Assembly (NCBI RefSeq): GCF_041886205.1 | Contig: NZ_CP169029.1 | Direction: 5' to 3' (one strand) | DNA from: Escherichia coli | GTDB lineage: Bacteria; Pseudomonadota; Gammaproteobacteria; Enterobacterales; Enterobacteriaceae | DNA: 64,000 bases | Shown: piece after piece, positions 37,981 to 59,284 of the stretch | Layout: each line of letters starts with the position of its first letter | How positions within the stretch are numbered: the first letter of the stretch is position 1 | Made by a program: the position numbers and the translations under genes | Notes under the pieces: generated by a model | The model's database searches: none | Told to the model about the DNA's origin: nothing | The model's input: the letters and a program-made list of their open reading frames with translations, nothing else

Positions 37981-39039
37981 GTGCGTGCCGATAAGTCATT
38001 AAGCCCGTTTGAAATCCGGGTATACCGCCATTACCGCATTGTGCATGGTACTCGGGTCGCGCTGGCATTCCTGCTCACTTTTCTCATTATCCGCCTGTTT
38101 ACTATCCCGGAAAGTACCTGGCCGCTGGTCACCATGGTGGTGATTATGGGGCCAATCTCGTTCTGGGGGAACGTTGTCCCTCGCGCATTCGAACGTATTG
38201 GCGGTACGGTGTTGGGGTCGATTTTAGGTCTTATCGCTCTGCAACTGGAGTTAATCTCGTTACCGCTGATGTTAGTCTGGTGCGCGGCGGCTATGTTTCT
38301 TTGCGGTTGGCTGGCGCTGGGCAAGAAACCGTATCAAGGTTTATTGATTGGGGTGACGCTGGCAATTGTTGTTGGTTCCCCGACAGGTGAAATTAATACG
38401 GCGTTATGGCGAAGCGGCGATGTGATCCTCGGCTCTTTACTGGCAATGTTGTTTACCGGTATCTGGCCACAACGGGCGTTCATCCACTGGCGCATTCAAC
38501 TGGCAAAAAGTCTGACCGAGTATAATCGGGTCTATCAATCTGCATTCTCACCGAACTTACTCGAACGCCCGCGTCTGGAAAGCCATCTACAAAAACTCCT
38601 GACCGATGCCGTGAAAATGCGTGGGCTGATTGCGCCCGCCAGCAAAGAAACCCGTATTCCAAAATCGATATATGAAGGTATCCAGACCATTAATCGCAAT
38701 CTGGTTTGTATGCTGGAGTTGCAAATCAATGCATACTGGGCCACGCGCCCCAGCCATTTCGTGTTATTGAACGCGCAAAAACTTCGTGATACCCAGCATA
38801 TGATGCAGCAAATACTGCTGAGCCTTGTTCATGCGCTGTACGAAGGTAATCCGCAGCCGGTTTTTGCCAATACGGAAAAATTGAACGATGCTGTGGAAGA
38901 GCTGCGTCAGTTGCTGAATAACCACCATGACCTGAAGGTTGTGGAAACACCAATCTATGGTTATGTGTGGCTGAACATGGAAACGGCACATCAGCTTGAG
39001 TTGCTATCGAATCTGATTTGCCGGGCCTTGCGCAAATAA
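37981..39039 (+). CDS. yeeA: inner membrane protein YeeA (FUSC-like)
   Basis: 352 aa with N-terminal multi-TM region; conserved position between sbmC and yeeX. Confidence 0.85.
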   Translation: MRADKSLSPFEIRVYRHYRIVHGTRVALAFLLTFLIIRLFTIPESTWPLVTMVVIMGPISFWGNVVPRAFERIGGTVLGSILGLIALQLELISLPLMLVWCAAAMFLCGWLALGKKPYQGLLIGVTLAIVVGSPTGEINTALWRSGDVILGSLLAMLFTGIWPQRAFIHWRIQLAKSLTEYNRVYQSAFSPNLLERPRLESHLQKLLTDAVKMRGLIAPASKETRIPKSIYEGIQTINRNLVCMLELQINAYWATRPSHFVLLNAQKLRDTQHMMQQILLSLVHALYEGNPQPVFANTEKLNDAVEELRQLLNNHHDLKVVETPIYGYVWLNMETAHQLELLSNLICRALRK

Positions 39040-39210
39040 TTCCTGAACTTCAGAATCATCTTGCTGCTGCTTCGATTCAGCAAGGATAAAGGGTATGATA
39101 GTGAAAAGGGATAAAAGCATTGTCATCTGCGGCAGCTATGAGTAATGTTGGCCCTAACGAATAGCGGTTGCTTAAACGAATCCGACTCTCACATTATCAG
39201 GGGTATAAAA

Positions 39211-39540
39211 ATGGAAACTACCAAGCCTTCATTCCAGGACGTACTGGAATTTGTTCGTCTGTTCCGTCGTAAGAACAAACTGCAACGTGAAATTCAGGAC
39301 GTTGAGAAAAAGATCCGTGACAACCAGAAGCGCGTCCTGTTGCTGGACAACCTGAGCGATTACATCAAGCCAGGGATGAGCGTTGAAGCAATCCAGGGCA
39401 TCATCGCCAGCATGAAAGGTGACTATGAAGATCGCGTTGACGATTACATCATCAAAAATGCCGAGCTCTCCAAAGAACGCCGCGATATCTCCAAAAAGCT
39501 GAAAGCTATGGGCGAAATGAAAAACGGCGAAGCGAAGTAA
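39211..39540 (+). CDS. yeeX: UPF0265 family protein YeeX
   Basis: 109 aa from [41 protein letters not shown]; the ORF-track upstream extension is rejected. Confidence 0.9.
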
Positions 39541-39640
39541 TTCCCGTTTTATTCAATGAGGGTTGCCCGGCAACCCTCATTGCTCATTGATTCTTATCTG
39601 TGTATCACCGTCATCATTCTCATCTGAGAACCAATCGAAA

Positions 39641-39890
39641 TTAACAACAGCCTTCTTCTGTATGCAGCAAGGCAAAAAGTTCTGTAACTCCATTGTTATT
39701 AACTGCACTGGTTACTAACACGTTGTGCGCTCCAGCTTCCCGTAACCAACTTTTCACCAAAGATATTTGTTCCATGCTGGCTAAATCTGCTTTGGTTACT
39801 ACTCCAATGACCGGGTGATTCATGGCCCGGTAGGGCGTTTTTACCTCTAATTCCTGCTTCAGCGCTGAGATTCCTGCTTGTTGCCGGAAA
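39641..39890 (-). pseudogene. C-terminal gene fragment (possibly small GTPase-like); 5' end replaced by an IS66 remnant
   Basis: ORF 39641..39997 has a C-terminal part (VIGVVTKADLASMEQISLVKSWLREAGAHNVLVTSAVNNNGVTELFALL) that reads as a protein fragment, while its N-terminal part is encoded antisense to an IS66 transposase fragment. Confidence 0.4.
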
Positions 39891-39892
39891 AG

Positions 39893-40052
39893 CAGGCACC
39901 TGCCGTCTGAACGGTATCGATCCGGAAGCGTATCTGCGCCATATTCTGAGCATACTGCCGGAATGGCCCTCCAACCGTGTTGACGAACTCCTGCCATGGA
40001 ACGTAGTTCTCACCAATAAATAAGCGTCAATACGGTGCTCCGTTGACGCTTA
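39893..40052 (+). mobile_element. IS66-family right-end remnant (3' end of transposase gene plus terminal inverted repeat)
   Basis: Plus-strand translation GTCRLNGIDPEAYLRHILSILPEWPSNRVDELLPWNVVLTNK* matches the C-terminus of the intact IS66-family transposase at 57043..58614 ([33 protein letters not shown]); followed by caatacggtgctccgttgacgcttac, resembling that copy's terminal repeat. Confidence 0.75.
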
Positions 40053-40437
40053 CTTTAATCCGTTTTCTGAGCTTAGATTTTTCTGTTCCTACCCAGACCG
40101 TGGATTTGGAATTCATTTTTTGTCAGGTCAATGCTAATCGTTAAAACGGCCATAACGCACCTCCACTGGAAGGTTTATCAGTAATATCCTACCGTTGCTT
40201 CATGGTCGGGGCGTCCATTCCATTATTATCGGTTTTCCTTTCTGTTTATAAATGAAAACGCCAGCTGTATTCAGGCTGGCGTCAGGGGAAATGAAGCCTG
40301 TTGAGTGAGATTCACCGGTTCTGGTGCAGAAGCTGCAGATGGCGCAGGGTAAGGACATCTTCTCTTGCCTGCTTAATACAGGACAACAGTGCTGTTTCTG
40401 TGGTTAATGGTACTATACCCTGCATCACTGCATTGTC

Positions 40438-40632
40438 TTACAGCAACTGGTGAGGGCTGGCATAAGTTGCCGGTGTTTCGGTAGAGTCACGGTCATCCAC
40501 CACGCGGAGTGAATAACCTTTTTCAGCGGCCTTATTAATCAGTTCAGTGATATTAACACCATCAATGTCAACGACAATGTGCCCCATATCCAGCGCCTGT
40601 ACGTTAACGCTGTCGGCTTCCAGTGTCATCAT
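40438..40632 (-). CDS. hypothetical 64-aa protein
   Basis: ATG preceded by a strong Shine-Dalgarno (ggaggcgaaatgatg on the coding strand); compositionally typical coding sequence; function unknown to me. Confidence 0.45.
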   Translation of the reverse strand: MMTLEADSVNVQALDMGHIVVDIDGVNITELINKAAEKGYSLRVVDDRDSTETPATYASPHQLL

Positions 40633-40749
40633 TTCGCCTCCGGATACTTACCCAGGGTAATGTTATTTACCGTTCTGTAATTGTCGCGGGTCATCAGGCC
40701 GGTCGCCCTGCGAGCCCGGAGGATATCGATGCTGTTTATTAACTGAGAG

Positions 40750-41459
40750 CGGGTATGGGCGCTGCTTCGCAGACAGGCAGAACTTGATGGTATGCCTGCG
40801 ATCAATGCCAAACGTGTTTACCGGATCATGCGCCAGAATGCGCTGTTGCTTGAGCGAAAACCTGCTGTACCGCCATCGAAACGGGCACATACAGGCAGAG
40901 TGGCCGTGAAAGAAAGCAATCAGCGATGGTGCTCTGACGGGTTCGAGTTCTGCTGTGATAACGGAGAGAGACTGCGTGTCACGTTCGCGCTGGACTGCTG
41001 TGATCGTGAGGCACTGCACTGGGCGGTCACTACCGGCGGCTTCAACAGTGAAACAGTACAGGACGTCATGCTGGGAGCGGTGGAACGCCGCTTCGGCAAC
41101 GATCTTCCGTCGTCTCCAGTGGAGTGGCTGACGGATAATGGTTCATGCTACCGGGCTAATGAAACACGCCAGTTCGCCCGGATGTTGGGACTTGAACCGA
41201 AGAACACGGCGGTGCGGAGTCCGGAGAGTAACGGAATAGCAGAGAGCTTCGTGAAAACGATAAAGCGTGACTACATCAGTATCATGCCCAAACCAGACGG
41301 GTTAACGGCAGCAAAGAACCTTGCAGAGGCGTTCGAGCATTATAACGAATGGCATCCGCATAGTGCGCTGGGTTATCGCTCGCCACGGGAATATCTGCGG
41401 CAGCGGGCTTGTAATGGGTTAAGTGATAACAGATGTCTGGAAATATAGGGGCAAATCCA
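40750..41459 (+). mobile_element. insD: truncated IS2 (3' about 710 bp: C-terminal 218 codons of InsD/OrfB plus right terminal repeat)
   Basis: ORF 40792..41448 translates to the IS2 OrfB C-terminus ([53 protein letters not shown]...); upstream in-frame [14 protein letters not shown] is preceded by a stop; IS2 end ...ggggcaaatcca at about 41459. Confidence 0.9.
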
Positions 41460-41792
41460 GCCACGAATGCGGATTTGTTTACGGCCTGCCAAGGAGTTGT
41501 CTGTTATCTCTACTCCGGGGATGTCCTGCAAATTATCGGCTATGGAGGCATTGGTGGAGTTCTGCAATGTTTGTTGGTCAATAACCTGTATAGTCGCCGG
41601 GCTTTCCCAAAGGTTGCTTGCCGAACGATTCGTGGTCACGACGAGCGTCTCTTCGTTGCTGATTTTTGTTTCTGAAGAAGTTGCGGTTGCAGTAGAAACT
41701 ATCCCAGAAATGCATAATGACAGAGTGGAAAGGATATAAATTCGACAAGGTATATTATATAACATTTCATCCCTCATTAATACAAAGTACAA
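41460..41792 (-). pseudogene. yoeA: N-terminal fragment of a TonB-dependent outer-membrane receptor gene, truncated by IS2 (yoeA-like)
   Basis: ORF 41373..41792 minus begins with a signal peptide and plug-domain motifs (ETLVVTTNRSASNLWESPATIQVIDQQTLQ ... DNLQDIPGVEITDNSLAGRKQIRIRG) and then runs into the IS2 end. Confidence 0.75.
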
Positions 41793-42010: not shown

Positions 42011-43436
42011 AAAACGGAGTTGAAAAAATGGTGTCTGAAAGAAGGTACCATCATTGTGATGACAAATACTTTGGCGTGGATAATGTAATTAATTGCTGAA
42101 ATTGACCGTATATGCGGTAAGACTCATATCAGTACCAGGTCCGGTTAATTGCTGATACTAATATAAACTTTTTACAAAAGGATGAATGCAGAAGGTTACT
42201 CTAATGGCCAGAGTGATGACAATGATGGTCAGACGTTGACCTGCAGAAACTGCATTTTAATTGGTCTATAAAGTCTGCAAGAGGAATCAGGGTCAGATCA
42301 GTGAGTCTTATCGCGGCCCGAAGCTATGACTGAAAGAAGGCTGGATACAGAATTGCAACAATTTGGCAATGTCAGAACACAGAAGCTTTGCAAGCAGGTG
42401 AAAGGTTATGTCTAGCAAAAGGAGTATATCAGAATATATCTACTGATGTACAAAACACAACAATAGCTTCATGATATATAAATACGTGATGACGAGTGGT
42501 ACTCCGCATGGTTATTTAACTTCTCAGCACCACTAATGATCCTGAGCAACTTCGTATTTGGGCCATTACCATGGAGTAGAAAGCTGTGTCTGAGAATGCA
42601 GAATTTGAGAAAAGAATTCGCTTTCTTGGAGAGCTTCTGAAAATGGCACGCTAACAACGTTTTGTTAAAAAATGTGAATCACTTGCCGGGGCTGCATTTT
42701 CTATTCGAGGAGAATGTTGACGTAGATATTACAGAAATCTCAGCGCATCAGGATAAACTGCTACCTTAGGTCAACCACCAAAAGAAAATACAATACGTCC
42801 AGTTTGTATGCCTTTAATAACACATCTTCTAAATGTTGAAGAATTATCCCGCCTGCTGAAGAACGTTGCTCTGAGTGTGATAAACCTTTTTATTCTTGAT
42901 GATGTCAGCGAGAAGATGGAATATATCCCCGACTGGGTCGTGGTTACCCGGTTAAACATCTGGTGGCGCTAATAAATCTGGCAAGTCACATTCTGTTGAA
43001 TGCTGTGACAGTGCCTTACCGAGAGAGCGAAATTGTGGTGTTCTAGTGCATAGTCGCCACCATTCCGGATAATTCTATTACGTTGTTTTACAAGTTCTTT
43101 TACAGCGCAGATCTGTCGCTGACGTTGAATCAATAGCCTGGATTTCAGAACACAATGCCCGTTTGCTGGTTGTTCCGGCAGTAGCATTAATTCATTATCT
43201 GAATGAAATGTGTCAATCCACAGAAACCGCTGTCAATGACGCATTTTGTCGGACGTTAACACGAGAAAGTCTGGCTATTCCGTAATGCCATCTTATTTCG
43301 TAATGGATTGAGAATGCTGGATTTTTAATTATATTACGCGCAGTATTAATCGCGTAAATGTTTTGCGGTCAGCAACGGTGGGGGATCCATTGTTCTGTTC
43401 AATGAATACCATCATACATTTGAATCAGGAGTCGGT

Positions 43437-43982
43437 ATGATGATTTTGGTGACGGGGGGCGCACGGAGCGGGAAGAGTCGCCACGCAGAGGCGCTTATTG
43501 GGGACTCTTCACAGGTTCTGTATATCGCTACCTCGCAAATCCTTGATGATGAGATGGCTGCACGGATAGAACATCATCGGCAAGGCCGCCCGGAGCACTG
43601 GCGCACAGTGGAGCGCTGGCAACATCTTGATGAATTAATTCATGCAGACATTAACCCGAATGAGGTTGTGTTGCTTGAATGCGTTACCACAATGGTGACT
43701 AATCTGTTGTTTGATTATGGCGGCGATAAAGACCCTGATGAATGGGATTATCAGGCGATGGAACAGGCGATTAATGCTGAGATTCAGTCGTTGATTGCTG
43801 CCTGCCAACGTTGCCCCGCAAAGGTTGTATTAGTGACTAACGAAGTGGGAATGGGGATTGTGCCGGAGAGTCGTCTGGCACGACATTTTCGTGATATTGC
43901 CGGGCGGGTAAATCAGCAGTTGGCCGCTGCGGCAAATGAAGTATGGCTGGTGGTTTCGGGTATTGGAGTAAAAATCAAATGA
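43437..43982 (+). CDS. cobU: adenosylcobinamide kinase / adenosylcobinamide-phosphate guanylyltransferase
   Basis: 181 aa; P-loop [18 protein letters not shown]. Confidence 0.95.
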
Positions 43983-55945: not shown

Positions 55946-55998
55946 GTAACCGGCTCATTTAAACCGTCTGGTCTGTTTCCTCCGGCTCTACAAAAATA

Positions 55999-56676
55999 AT
56001 GTCCATCATTTTTAATGGACACTATCGTATGAAACACCGGACCTGGATCACTGAAGCTTTACGTCTTCACTTTGAAGAACATTTACCCCGGGTTGTGGCC
56101 GGGCGTCGCCTGGGTGTACCAAAATCAACAGTTTGTAGTATGTTCGTGCGCTTTCGGAGAGCTGGCCTTTCGTGGCCTTTGCCCGCAGGCATGTCGGAGC
56201 AGGAACTTGATGCCTGCCTTTACGGACAATTTTCCACGGTACCAGTCGTACGTCCTGAAAGCACCGTTATATCCGAAGCCCCCGTGGTAAAAAAACGTCC
56301 CCGGCGGCCCAACTTCCCTTATGAGTTTAAAATCGCCTTAGTGGAGCAGTCACTGCAGCCCGGAGCCTGTGTGGCGCAGATCGCCCGGGAAAACGGAATC
56401 AACGATAACCTGCTCTTCAACTGGCGCCATCAATACCGGAAAGGTGGCCTGCTGCCTTCCGGAAAAAATATGCCGGCACTGCTTCCCGTGACGTTAACGC
56501 CGGAGCCGGATAATAAAATCCCGGCCCCCGCACAGGAACCAGAGCAGATAAATACACCGTCCGACAGTCTGTGTTGTGAGCTGGTTCTGCCGGCCGGAAC
56601 TCTCAGGCTTAAAGGTAAACTGACGCCGGCGTTATTACAGACACTTATCCGCGAAATAAAAGGGAGCAGCCACTGA
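55999..56676 (+). CDS. IS66-family accessory protein (orf1, HTH-containing); true start uncertain
   Basis: First ORF of the element; stop overlaps the start of orf2 (ATGA). Confidence 0.6.
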   Translation: MSIIFNGHYRMKHRTWITEALRLHFEEHLPRVVAGRRLGVPKSTVCSMFVRFRRAGLSWPLPAGMSEQELDACLYGQFSTVPVVRPESTVISEAPVVKKRPRRPNFPYEFKIALVEQSLQPGACVAQIARENGINDNLLFNWRHQYRKGGLLPSGKNMPALLPVTLTPEPDNKIPAPAQEPEQINTPSDSLCCELVLPAGTLRLKGKLTPALLQTLIREIKGSSH

Positions 56677-57023
56677 TGATATCTCTCCCTGCAGGTTCGC
56701 GTATCTGGCTGGTTGCAGGTATCACCGATATGCGAAATGGCTTTAACGGCCTGGCATCAAAAGTTCAGAACGTCCTGAAGGATGACCCGTTCTCCGGACA
56801 CCTGTTCATCTTCCGCGGACGCCGGGGTGACCAGATAAAAGTGTTGTGGGCTGACAGTGACGGACTGTGCCTCTTCACCAAACGCCTGGAGCGGGGCCGC
56901 TTCGTCTGGCCAGTCACCCGTGACGGCAAGGTGCACCTTACTCCGGCTCAGTTATCCATGCTTCTTGAAGGTATCAACTGGAAGCACCCGAAACGAACGG
57001 AACGCGCTGGAATCCGCATATAA
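56676..57023 (+). CDS. IS66-family Orf2 (TnpB-like)
   Basis: 115 aa; MISLPAGSRIWLVAGITDMRNGFNGLA, characteristic IS66 Orf2. Confidence 0.85.
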   Translation: MISLPAGSRIWLVAGITDMRNGFNGLASKVQNVLKDDPFSGHLFIFRGRRGDQIKVLWADSDGLCLFTKRLERGRFVWPVTRDGKVHLTPAQLSMLLEGINWKHPKRTERAGIRI

Positions 57024-57042
57024 CCCGTTGTAAAGTGAGGAT

Positions 57043-58614
57043 ATGGACACCTCACTTGCTCATGAGAACGCCCGCCTGCGGGCACTGTTGCAGACGCAAC
57101 AGGACACCATCCGCCAGATGGCTGAATACAACCGCCTGCTCTCACAGCGGGTGGCGGCTTATGCTTCCGAAATCAACCGGCTGAAGGCGCTGGTTGCGAA
57201 ACTGCAACGTATGCAGTTCGGTAAAAGCTCAGAAAAACTTCGTGCAAAAACCGAACGGCAGATACAGGAAGCACAGGAGCGAATCAGCGCACTTCAGGAA
57301 GAAATGGCGGAAACGCTGGGTGAGCAATATGACCCGGTACTGCCATCCGCCCTGCGCCAGTCTTCAGCCCGTAAACCGTTACCGGCCTCACTTCCCCGTG
57401 AAACCCGGGTTATCCGGCCGGAAGAGGAATGCTGTCCTGCCTGTGGTGGTGAACTCAGTTCTCTGGGATGTGATGTGTCAGAGCAACTGGAGCTTATCAG
57501 CAGCGCCTTTAAGGTTATCGAAACACAACGTCCGAAACAGGCCTGTTGCCGGTGCGACCATATCGTGCAGGCACCAGTACCTTCAAAACCCATTGCACGC
57601 AGTTATGCCGGAGCGGGGCTTCTGGCCCATGTTGTCACCGGGAAATATGCAGACCATCTGCCGTTATACCGCCAGTCAGAAATATACCGTCGTCAGGGAG
57701 TGGAGCTGAGCCGTGCCACACTGGGGCGCTGGACAGGTGCTGTTGCTGAACTGCTGGAGCCGCTGTATGACGTCCTGCGCCAGTATGTGCTGATGCCCGG
57801 TAAAGTCCATGCTGATGATATCCCCGTCCCGGTCCAGGAGCCGGGCAGCGGTAAAACCCGGACAGCCCGGCTGTGGGTCTACGTCCGTGATGACCGTAAC
57901 GCCGGTTCACAGATGCCCCCGGCGGTCTGGTTCGCGTACAGTCCGGACCGGAAAGGTATCCATCCACAAAATCACCTGGCCGGTTACAGCGGTGTGCTTC
58001 AGGCCGATGCTTACGGTGGTTACCGGGCGTTATACGAATCCGGCAGAATAACGGAAGCCGCGTGTATGGCTCATGCCCGGAGAAAAATCCACGATGTGCA
58101 TGCAAGAGCGTCCACCTACATCACCACGGAAGCCCTGCAGCGTATCGGTGAACTGTATGCCATCGAGGCAGAGGTCCGGGGCTGTTCAGCAGAACAGCGT
58201 CTGGCGGCAAGAAAAGCCAGAGCCGCGCCACTGATGCAGTCACTGTATGACTGGATACAGCAACAGATGAAAACACTGTCGCGTCACTCAGATACGGCAA
58301 AAGCGTTCGCATACCTGCTGAAACAGTGGGATGCACTGAACGTGTACTGCAGTAATGGCTGGGTGGAAATCGACAACAACATCGCAGAGAACGCCTTACG
58401 GGGAGTGGCCGTAGGCCGGAAAAACTGGATGTTCGCGGGTTCCGACAGCGGTGGTGAACATGCGGCGGTGTTGTACTCGCTGATCGGCACATGCCGTCTG
58501 AACAATGTGGAGCCAGAAAAGTGGCTGCGTTACGTCATTGAACATATCCAGGACTGGCCGGCAAACCGGGTACGCGATCTGTTGCCCTGGAAAGTTGATC
58601 TGAGCTCTCAGTAA
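57043..58614 (+). CDS. IS66-family transposase (TnpC)
   Basis: 523 aa; N-terminal leucine zipper, CxxC...CxxC zinc-binding motif (CCPACGG ... CCRCD), conserved DDE region. Confidence 0.9.
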
Positions 58615-58643
58615 ATATCAATACGGTTCTGACGAGTCGCTTA

Positions 58644-59284
58644 CCAATATTGAAAAAACAGACTTTGTTGTCATCCATATTCCCGATCAGATTGGCGATG
58701 CTATGGCCATCTTTCCTGTTATTCGGGCGCTTGAATTGCATAAAATTAAGCATCTTTTAATTGTAACGTCGACAATTAATTTAGAAGTCTTTAATGCGCT
58801 TAAACTTGAACAGACTAAATTAACATTAGTCACAATGACTATGCAGGATCACGCAACATTAAAAGAAATAAAAGATTTAGCAAAGAACATAACACAGCAA
58901 TACGGTACGCCGGATCTTTGCATTGAGGGGATGCGTAAAAAGAACCTGAAAACGATGTTATTTATCAGTCAGTTGAAAGCAAAAACGAATTTTCAGGTTG
59001 TTGGTATAACCATGAATTGCTTCTCCCCTTTGTGCAAGAACGCGTCCCGTATGGATCAGAAACTCCGGGCTCCCGTACCTATGACATGGGCATTTATGAT
59101 GCGTGAGGCGGGTTTTCCAGCAGTCAGGCCAATATATGAATTGCCACTAAGTGAGGATGTACTCGATGAGGTGCGCGAGGAAATGCGATCGTTAGGATCT
59201 TACATTGCGTTCAATTTAGAAGGTAGCTCGCAGGAACGTACATTTTCATTATCGATTGCAGAAAATCTAATAGCAAAAATTTAA
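58644..59284 (+). pseudogene. yeeL: yeeL-like glycosyltransferase-9 pseudogene, central part (resumes after the IS66 insertion)
   Basis: In-frame continuation ...NIEKTDFVVIHIPDQIGDAMAIFPVIRALEL..., reminiscent of heptosyltransferase N-terminal domain. Confidence 0.6.

Follow-up and report, generated by a model that had tools for sequence, protein, structure and literature searches.

The locus beside yeeX (tmaR) in the 64,000-nucleotide stretch of Escherichia coli DNA analysed here (contig NZ_CP169029.1, referred to as the window) is very probably an inert scar of several layers where the CP4-44 island ends on its right, produced by an ordered series of insertions and deletions. It is composed of the 3′ end of pduV, a fragment of a DUF4942 gene, the right end of an IS66-family element of the ISEc23 type, and the 5′ end of a decayed IS110-family element (Table 1). 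The locus is the already catalogued yoeD/yoeF pair of the reference genome, an ordinary scar with an inert IS remnant; what is added here is its dissection into these pieces and the order of events, which is a refinement and not a new kind of feature. The scar records the loss of pduV and of the pdu operon beside yeeX in E. coli, together with the gain of CP4-44. Its alternative states (intact pdu, O26-type, K-12-type, and fresh ISEc23 insertions) make it a lineage marker. A further state, with an IS3, is that of CREC_5.

Table 1. Features of the yoeD/yoeF locus in the window, and ISEc23 insertions at the same locus in other strains
Feature	Position	Strand	Basis or remark
yeeA	37981-39039	+	
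yeeX (tmaR), intact chromosomal neighbour	39211-39540	+	PGAP annotation of 99.9% identical matches and of MG1655
pduV stub: final 60 codons and stop codon of a PduV GTPase of 147 aa; forms the C-terminal part of K-12 yoeF	39641-39823	-	homology to strain A37
Chimeric ORF, 118 aa (K-12 yoeF, b4538)	39641-39997	-	34 codons antisense IS66, 24 DUF4942, 60 PduV
5-bp microhomology (extent approximate; ATGAA in the coding sense) where DUF4942 joins pduV in frame	39819-39823	-	three-way comparison of window, A37 pduV and DUF4942 gene L014
DUF4942 gene fragment, 71 bp, about codons 41-63	39824-39894	-	blastn to intact DUF4942 gene L014
ISEc23-type (IS66 family) right-end stub	39895-40053	+	tnpC codons 496-537 and stop (39895-40023, K-12 pseudogene yoeD, b4642), then 30-bp end with CGCTTAC
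TTTAATCC, presumed right copy of an 8-bp target duplication	40054-40061	.	intact ISEc23 copies elsewhere duplicate 8 bp
5′ stub of decayed IS110-family element	40054-40224	-	homology to O26-type element; includes first 21 codons (40116 down to 40054)
Resumption of CP4-44	40225-40632	-	DUF957 pseudogene (40312-40404), yeeW (40438-40632)
ISEc23 in C288	inside IS110-like gene		duplication GACATTAT
ISEc23 in NR1441	inside pduV stub		duplication TTATTAAC
ISEc23 in ETEC H10407	at IS110-like boundary		

Composition of the yoeD/yoeF locus

The IS66-family stub aligns without gaps to the terminal 159 bp of intact 2532-bp ISEc23 copies (the names ISEc23 and ISCro1 are taken from PGAP labels). It is collinear with the last 159 bp of the intact copy on plasmid pNORD58_1 (L010:1128-3659, 2532 bp, flanked by the 8-bp duplication CTGGCTGG), with 96.2% identity at the DNA level and 98% at the protein level. 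The closest variant, a plasmid copy in AR_0006, is 99.4% identical to the stub. The stub contains 42 tnpC codons and the stop codon, followed by the 30-bp terminal region, and its last bases, ending at 40053, are GTTGACGCTTAC (...CGCTTAC). This right terminus is identical in nine other ISEc23 copies, the left ends of which begin with GTAAGCGTAAAC; the IS66 terminal inverted repeat (GTAAGCG at the start, ...CGCTTAC at the right end) is thus present at the right end of the stub. Reading of the plus strand in the frame starting at 39886 yields GKAGTCRLNGIDPEAYLRHILSILPEWPSNRVDELLPWNVVLTNK followed by a stop codon, and the last 42 residues represent the IS66 C-terminal domain (Pfam DDE_Tnp_IS66_C, 58.8 bits, cut-off 30, E=5.8e-16, matching positions 4-39 of the 39-position profile). 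Of these residues, 41 (98%) are identical to the C-terminus of the 537-aa ISEc23 TnpC. The original prediction of a solo IS66-family right-end remnant, made from the letters alone, is borne out by this alignment and by the IS66 similarity of the translation. Its right terminus was recognized correctly as an IS66 end, and its coordinate of 40052 falls one base short.

NCBIfam transpos_IS66 scores 12.4 bits on the stub against a cut-off of 180, with 159 of 2532 bp left. In comparison to the intact element, the stub lacks tnpA, tnpB, 495 of the 537 tnpC codons, the DDE domain, the left end with its inverted repeat, and the left duplication, and hence is unable to transpose. Judged by its sequence, it is a remnant and not a mobile element. 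A perfect 9-bp inverted repeat with a 12-nt loop, AAGCGTCAA ... TTGACGCTT (window 40022-40051), follows the tnpC stop codon and precedes the IS terminus. All ISEc23 right ends examined retain this repeat, and transposase binding and a transcription stop are candidate roles.

The window also carries an intact IS66-family element of the ISCro1 type (55946-58644, 2699 bp, 8-bp duplication CAATATTG). The stub had been considered a different and older family member, about 60 percent identical in protein sequence to this copy. It is indeed a different member (ISEc23-type versus ISCro1-type), but only 21 of 42 residues (50%; positives 81%; DNA 67.8%) are identical to the ISCro1-type TnpC (57043-58614). 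The greater age of the stub is plausible, because 3163 of 5426 complete E. coli genomes carry it at the corresponding position, whereas the junction of the ISCro1-type element is shared in one piece by no complete E. coli genome. For this latter reason, the ISCro1-type copy looks like a recent, strain-specific insertion. It has the ends GTAACCG... and ...GCTTAC and sits in a glycosyltransferase family 9 gene; its first ORF (55999-56676) spans 225 aa, against 141 aa for the ISEc23 TnpA seen elsewhere.

The truncated gene next to yeeX, the identity of which the original prediction had left to be established, is pduV, according to alignment with strain A37 and to Pfam. E. coli A37 carries an intact pduV (147 aa, WP_001189429) beside tmaR, at the end of the pdu operon, in the order tmaR-pduV-pduU-pduT-pduS-pduQ-pduP. 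The stub shares its position and orientation beside tmaR, but the N-terminal 87 residues and the entire pdu operon are absent from the window. The window ORF aligns to A37 PduV over its final 60 residues only, with 57 of 60 identical (95%), and DNA homology to A37 pduV ends at 39823. Pfam PduV-EutP covers profile positions 86-142 of 143 (E=5.9e-13, 49.3 bits, cut-off 21), and NCBIfam EutP covers positions 87-141 of 142 with 43 bits against a cut-off of 138. Relative to the full length of about 143-147 aa, the stub is devoid of the P-loop and nucleotide-binding half of the GTPase.

DUF4942 is encoded by a gene at the end of CP4-type islands. The fragment of this gene in the window matches the intact DUF4942 gene L014 by blastn (76% over 80 bp, E=4.5e-10). 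A longer version is present in O26-type genomes, represented by O26:H11 strain 11368 (NC_013361, locus L007); at L007:2619-2802 it corresponds to the N-terminus of DUF4942, with 58% identity over 59 aa in tblastn against the intact 281-aa DUF4942 (E=2.5e-14). The shared ATGAA at the junction with pduV is of approximate extent, since the L014 parent is only 76% identical. The join points to in-frame illegitimate recombination of the microhomology type.

The locus thus contains two distinct breakpoints, namely pduV/DUF4942 (39819-39823) and DUF4942/IS66 (39894/39895). The latter lies inside the IS and not at an IS end, and a search for microhomology at this position found none. The adjacent minus-strand ORF is a chimera with an N-terminus of antisense IS sequence, as had been proposed, the antisense part being its first 34 codons. 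The annotation of such ORFs calls for caution: PGAP applies the name "EutP/PduV family microcompartment system protein" to local chimeric ORFs of 43, 60, 107, 118 or 121 aa, none of which can act as a functional GTPase. The 121-aa form is an in-frame fusion ORF in O26:H11 strain 11368 (L007:2436-2801) and 690 other genomes, which joins 57 N-terminal DUF4942 residues to 64 C-terminal ones, the PduV tail among them; its start codon is the native one of DUF4942, and PGAP gives it the same name.

The IS110-family element on the other side of the stub was overlooked in the original prediction. The window retains 171 bp of it, adjoining the IS66 end on its right. In O26-type genomes, the element is uninterrupted (1369 bp, L007:2803-4171) and located directly upstream of the DUF4942 start codon. 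PGAP lists it as a frameshifted IS110-family transposase, and the gene carries both frameshifts and stop codons. Pfam analysis of the uninterrupted copy yields Transposase_20 with 45.5 bits (cut-off 21.3) and DEDD_Tnp_IS110 with 23 bits (cut-off 29), and an Rfam scan of the O26-type locus L007, including the IS110-like element, returned no family. The window and the O26-type sequence are homologous up to 39894 (L007:2689) and again from 40054 (L007:4001), a point 21 codons inside the IS110-like gene.

Comparison with K-12, as suggested in the original prediction, places yoeD, yoeF and the end of CP4-44 of MG1655 at equivalent positions, with the same structure as in the window. Across 357 nt, MG1655 yoeF and the window ORF differ at a single base; yoeD corresponds to the tnpC remnant, and the CP4-44 end in the MG1655 record (2078748) maps to window 39824. 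There is essentially no difference between the two at this site; deeper in CP4-44, the window is far more deleted.

Proposed order of events

The history that we propose begins with yeeX followed by pduV as the last gene of the pdu operon, a state that is directly seen in A37. A CP4-type island would then have arrived, and recombination at the ATGAA microhomology would have fused DUF4942 at about codon 63 to pduV codon 88 in frame, with loss of the remainder of pduV and of the DNA beyond. The junction itself is observed, and the mechanism is deduced from it. An IS110-family element would have settled immediately in front of the DUF4942 start codon and degenerated there, resulting in the state seen in O26-type genomes; the DUF4942/pduV join and the IS110-family element may have come in either order. 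The O26:H11 allele has the pduV::DUF4942 junction and the island end as in the window, but it differs in its full 57-codon DUF4942 N-terminus, the uninterrupted IS110-like element and the absence of the IS66 stub. Since the IS110-like transposase gene must once have been contiguous, the uninterrupted O26-type state precedes the IS66 event.

An ISEc23-type element would subsequently have inserted 21 codons into the IS110-like gene (L007:4008/4009), presumably duplicating TTTAATCC. We infer this insertion from the intact right end of the stub. The octamer occurs once in the O26-type sequence (L007:4001-4008). As the left copy of the duplication has been deleted, a target duplication, and hence a simple insertion, is beyond proof at this stub. 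Finally, a blunt deletion would have taken away 2373 bp from the left side of the IS, the left duplication and 1311 bp of neighbouring DNA (L007:2690-4000), the latter comprising about the first 40 DUF4942 codons along with 1198 bp of IS110-like sequence. The endpoints of this deletion are observed, and its outcome would be the 159-bp IS stub abutting 71 bp of DUF4942. A search with a composite of 400 bp of ISEc23 and 200 bp of the right flank found no IS66 sequence longer than 159 bp at the 40054 junction among 5426 genomes, and retrieved independent ISEc23 insertions at other sites instead, each with an 8-bp duplication of its own (C288, NR1441 and H10407; Table 1). The intermediate of insertion followed by deletion is therefore inferred rather than observed.

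Alternatively, the K-12-type and O26-type states might not be ancestor and descendant, and the stub segment might have been recombined in from another CP4-type island already carrying a truncated ISEc23, thereby displacing the local IS110-like segment. CP4-type islands are multi-copy (median of 3 places per genome), ISEc23 has entered this neighbourhood repeatedly and independently, and the K-12-type and O26-type states are both scattered over unrelated lineages, all of which would fit such an import. However, neither the 100 bp immediately right of the stub nor the IS110-like segment occurs more than once per genome, and both were seen at this locus only. Moreover, both flanks of the stub (the DUF4942 fragment and the IS110-like 5′ end) match the O26-type sequence at 98-99% identity, as is predicted for a local deletion derivative. 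We consider the import improbable, and local insertion followed by deletion remains the preferred reading.

Deletions adjacent to an IS that are made by its transposase leave the element whole. The original prediction assumed a single deletion of this kind, mediated by IS66, that joined the IS directly to the truncated chromosomal gene at 39894/39895, in line with an ORF that reads from antisense IS sequence into a PduV-like C-terminus; this is highly improbable, given that pduV homology stops 71 bp short of the IS, that these 71 bp are derived from DUF4942, and that the junction shows neither microhomology nor an IS end. As the IS itself is truncated at this junction, the term "IS-mediated deletion" is unsupported. 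The IS66 element would rather be a casualty of the deletion, having itself been cut by it.

Conservation and possible function

The full 900 bp of the locus (39541-40440) are present, at a minimum of 98.8% identity and 80% coverage, in the aforementioned 3163 of 5426 complete E. coli genomes. Carriers include K-12 derivatives, B strains, O157:H7, O103, O104:H4 and ST131. The O26-type state, counted where at least 80% of the segment is present, is found in 691 genomes (O26:H11 strain 11368 and 690 others).

This strong conservation of the arrangement over thousands of genomes, together with the listing of yoeF as a CDS in MG1655, may suggest that yoeF is translated, or that the yoeD region is a regulatory RNA or DNA element, and that either is under selection. 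In MG1655, CRISPRi directed against yoeD changed ampicillin MIC heterogeneity and the rate of resazurin reduction (PMC5311112). These phenotypes hint at a physiological effect of the yoeF chimera or of an expressed transcript spanning yoeD, perhaps by read-through from cbeA-cbtA-yeeW, which we regard as hardly probable. The CRISPRi effects are an unconfirmed hint, and may be polar or off-target. The level of conservation equals the general low divergence of E. coli. The stub differs from intact pduV at 4 nonsynonymous and 3 synonymous codons, numbers too small for an informative selection test, and a published strain comparison lists 7 SNPs in yoeF leading to 5 amino-acid changes (PMC5359238). 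The ORF is devoid of the PduV P-loop half (see above), and its length as called by PGAP varies by genome (60, 107 or 118 aa). A promoter and terminator scan of 39400-40700 found nothing above shuffled expectation, and the Rfam scan of the related O26-type locus was negative. Taken with this evidence, a selected function of yoeF or yoeD is very unlikely, and we retain the reading of the locus as an inert scar.

Flanking regions and further ISEc23 insertions

CP4-44 is much more reduced in the window than in K-12 (window 40629-41792). The cbtA gene breaks off at about 40790, where it joins a partial IS2 (orfB part, 40792-41448) and the N-terminus of yoeA, a TonB-dependent receptor pseudogene (41373-41792, minus strand). 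The genes flu, yeeR, yeeS, yeeT and cbeA are consequently missing. This reduced arrangement is collinear in no complete genome; the closest is that of strain D2, which has a different IS2 breakpoint.

Upstream of cobU (43437-43982), a 47-codon fragment is located at 43142-43285 on the plus strand. Its counterpart in strains D2 and CREC_5 is annotated by PGAP as "cobalamin biosynthesis protein, missing N-terminus", and neither an HMM check against NCBIfam, which returned no match, nor other checks bore out this label. This putative cobalamin-gene fragment may be the other edge of an ancestral cbi-pdu block that was replaced by CP4-44. A literature search for a link between CP4-44 and pdu or cobU returned no paper that contained the term CP4-44.

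On the tmaR side, the 16-codon small ORF yoeJ (b4818 in MG1655) is present between yeeA and tmaR (window 39095-39145, plus strand). Just 3′ of the tmaR stop codon lies the inverted repeat gggttgcccggcaaccctc (window 39554-39582), which gives an opposite-strand self-match in all genomes compared. The repeat probably represents the tmaR terminator hairpin, even though it is uncalled by a simple terminator scan.

At least 4 independent ISEc23 insertions are found within about 1.7 kb of the locus in different strains, all in one orientation; loci with such insertions are L016:2369-4900, L018:1869-4400 and L017:1056-4900. Nested adjacent deletions starting from one ISEc23 insertion were considered as a source of the differing right junctions, and were rejected because C288 and NR1441 carry intact duplications on both sides. 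The apparent sharing of 17-36 bp of right flank with ISEc23 copies elsewhere is a matter of gapped alignment through loosely similar A/T-rich target sites, and not of a mobilised flank. The ISEc23 targets are A/T-rich octamers, namely TTTAATCC, GACATTAT, TTATTAAC and probably ATTATTAT. The clustering of ISEc23 insertions may point to a hot spot at this locus or to weakly preferred target sites.
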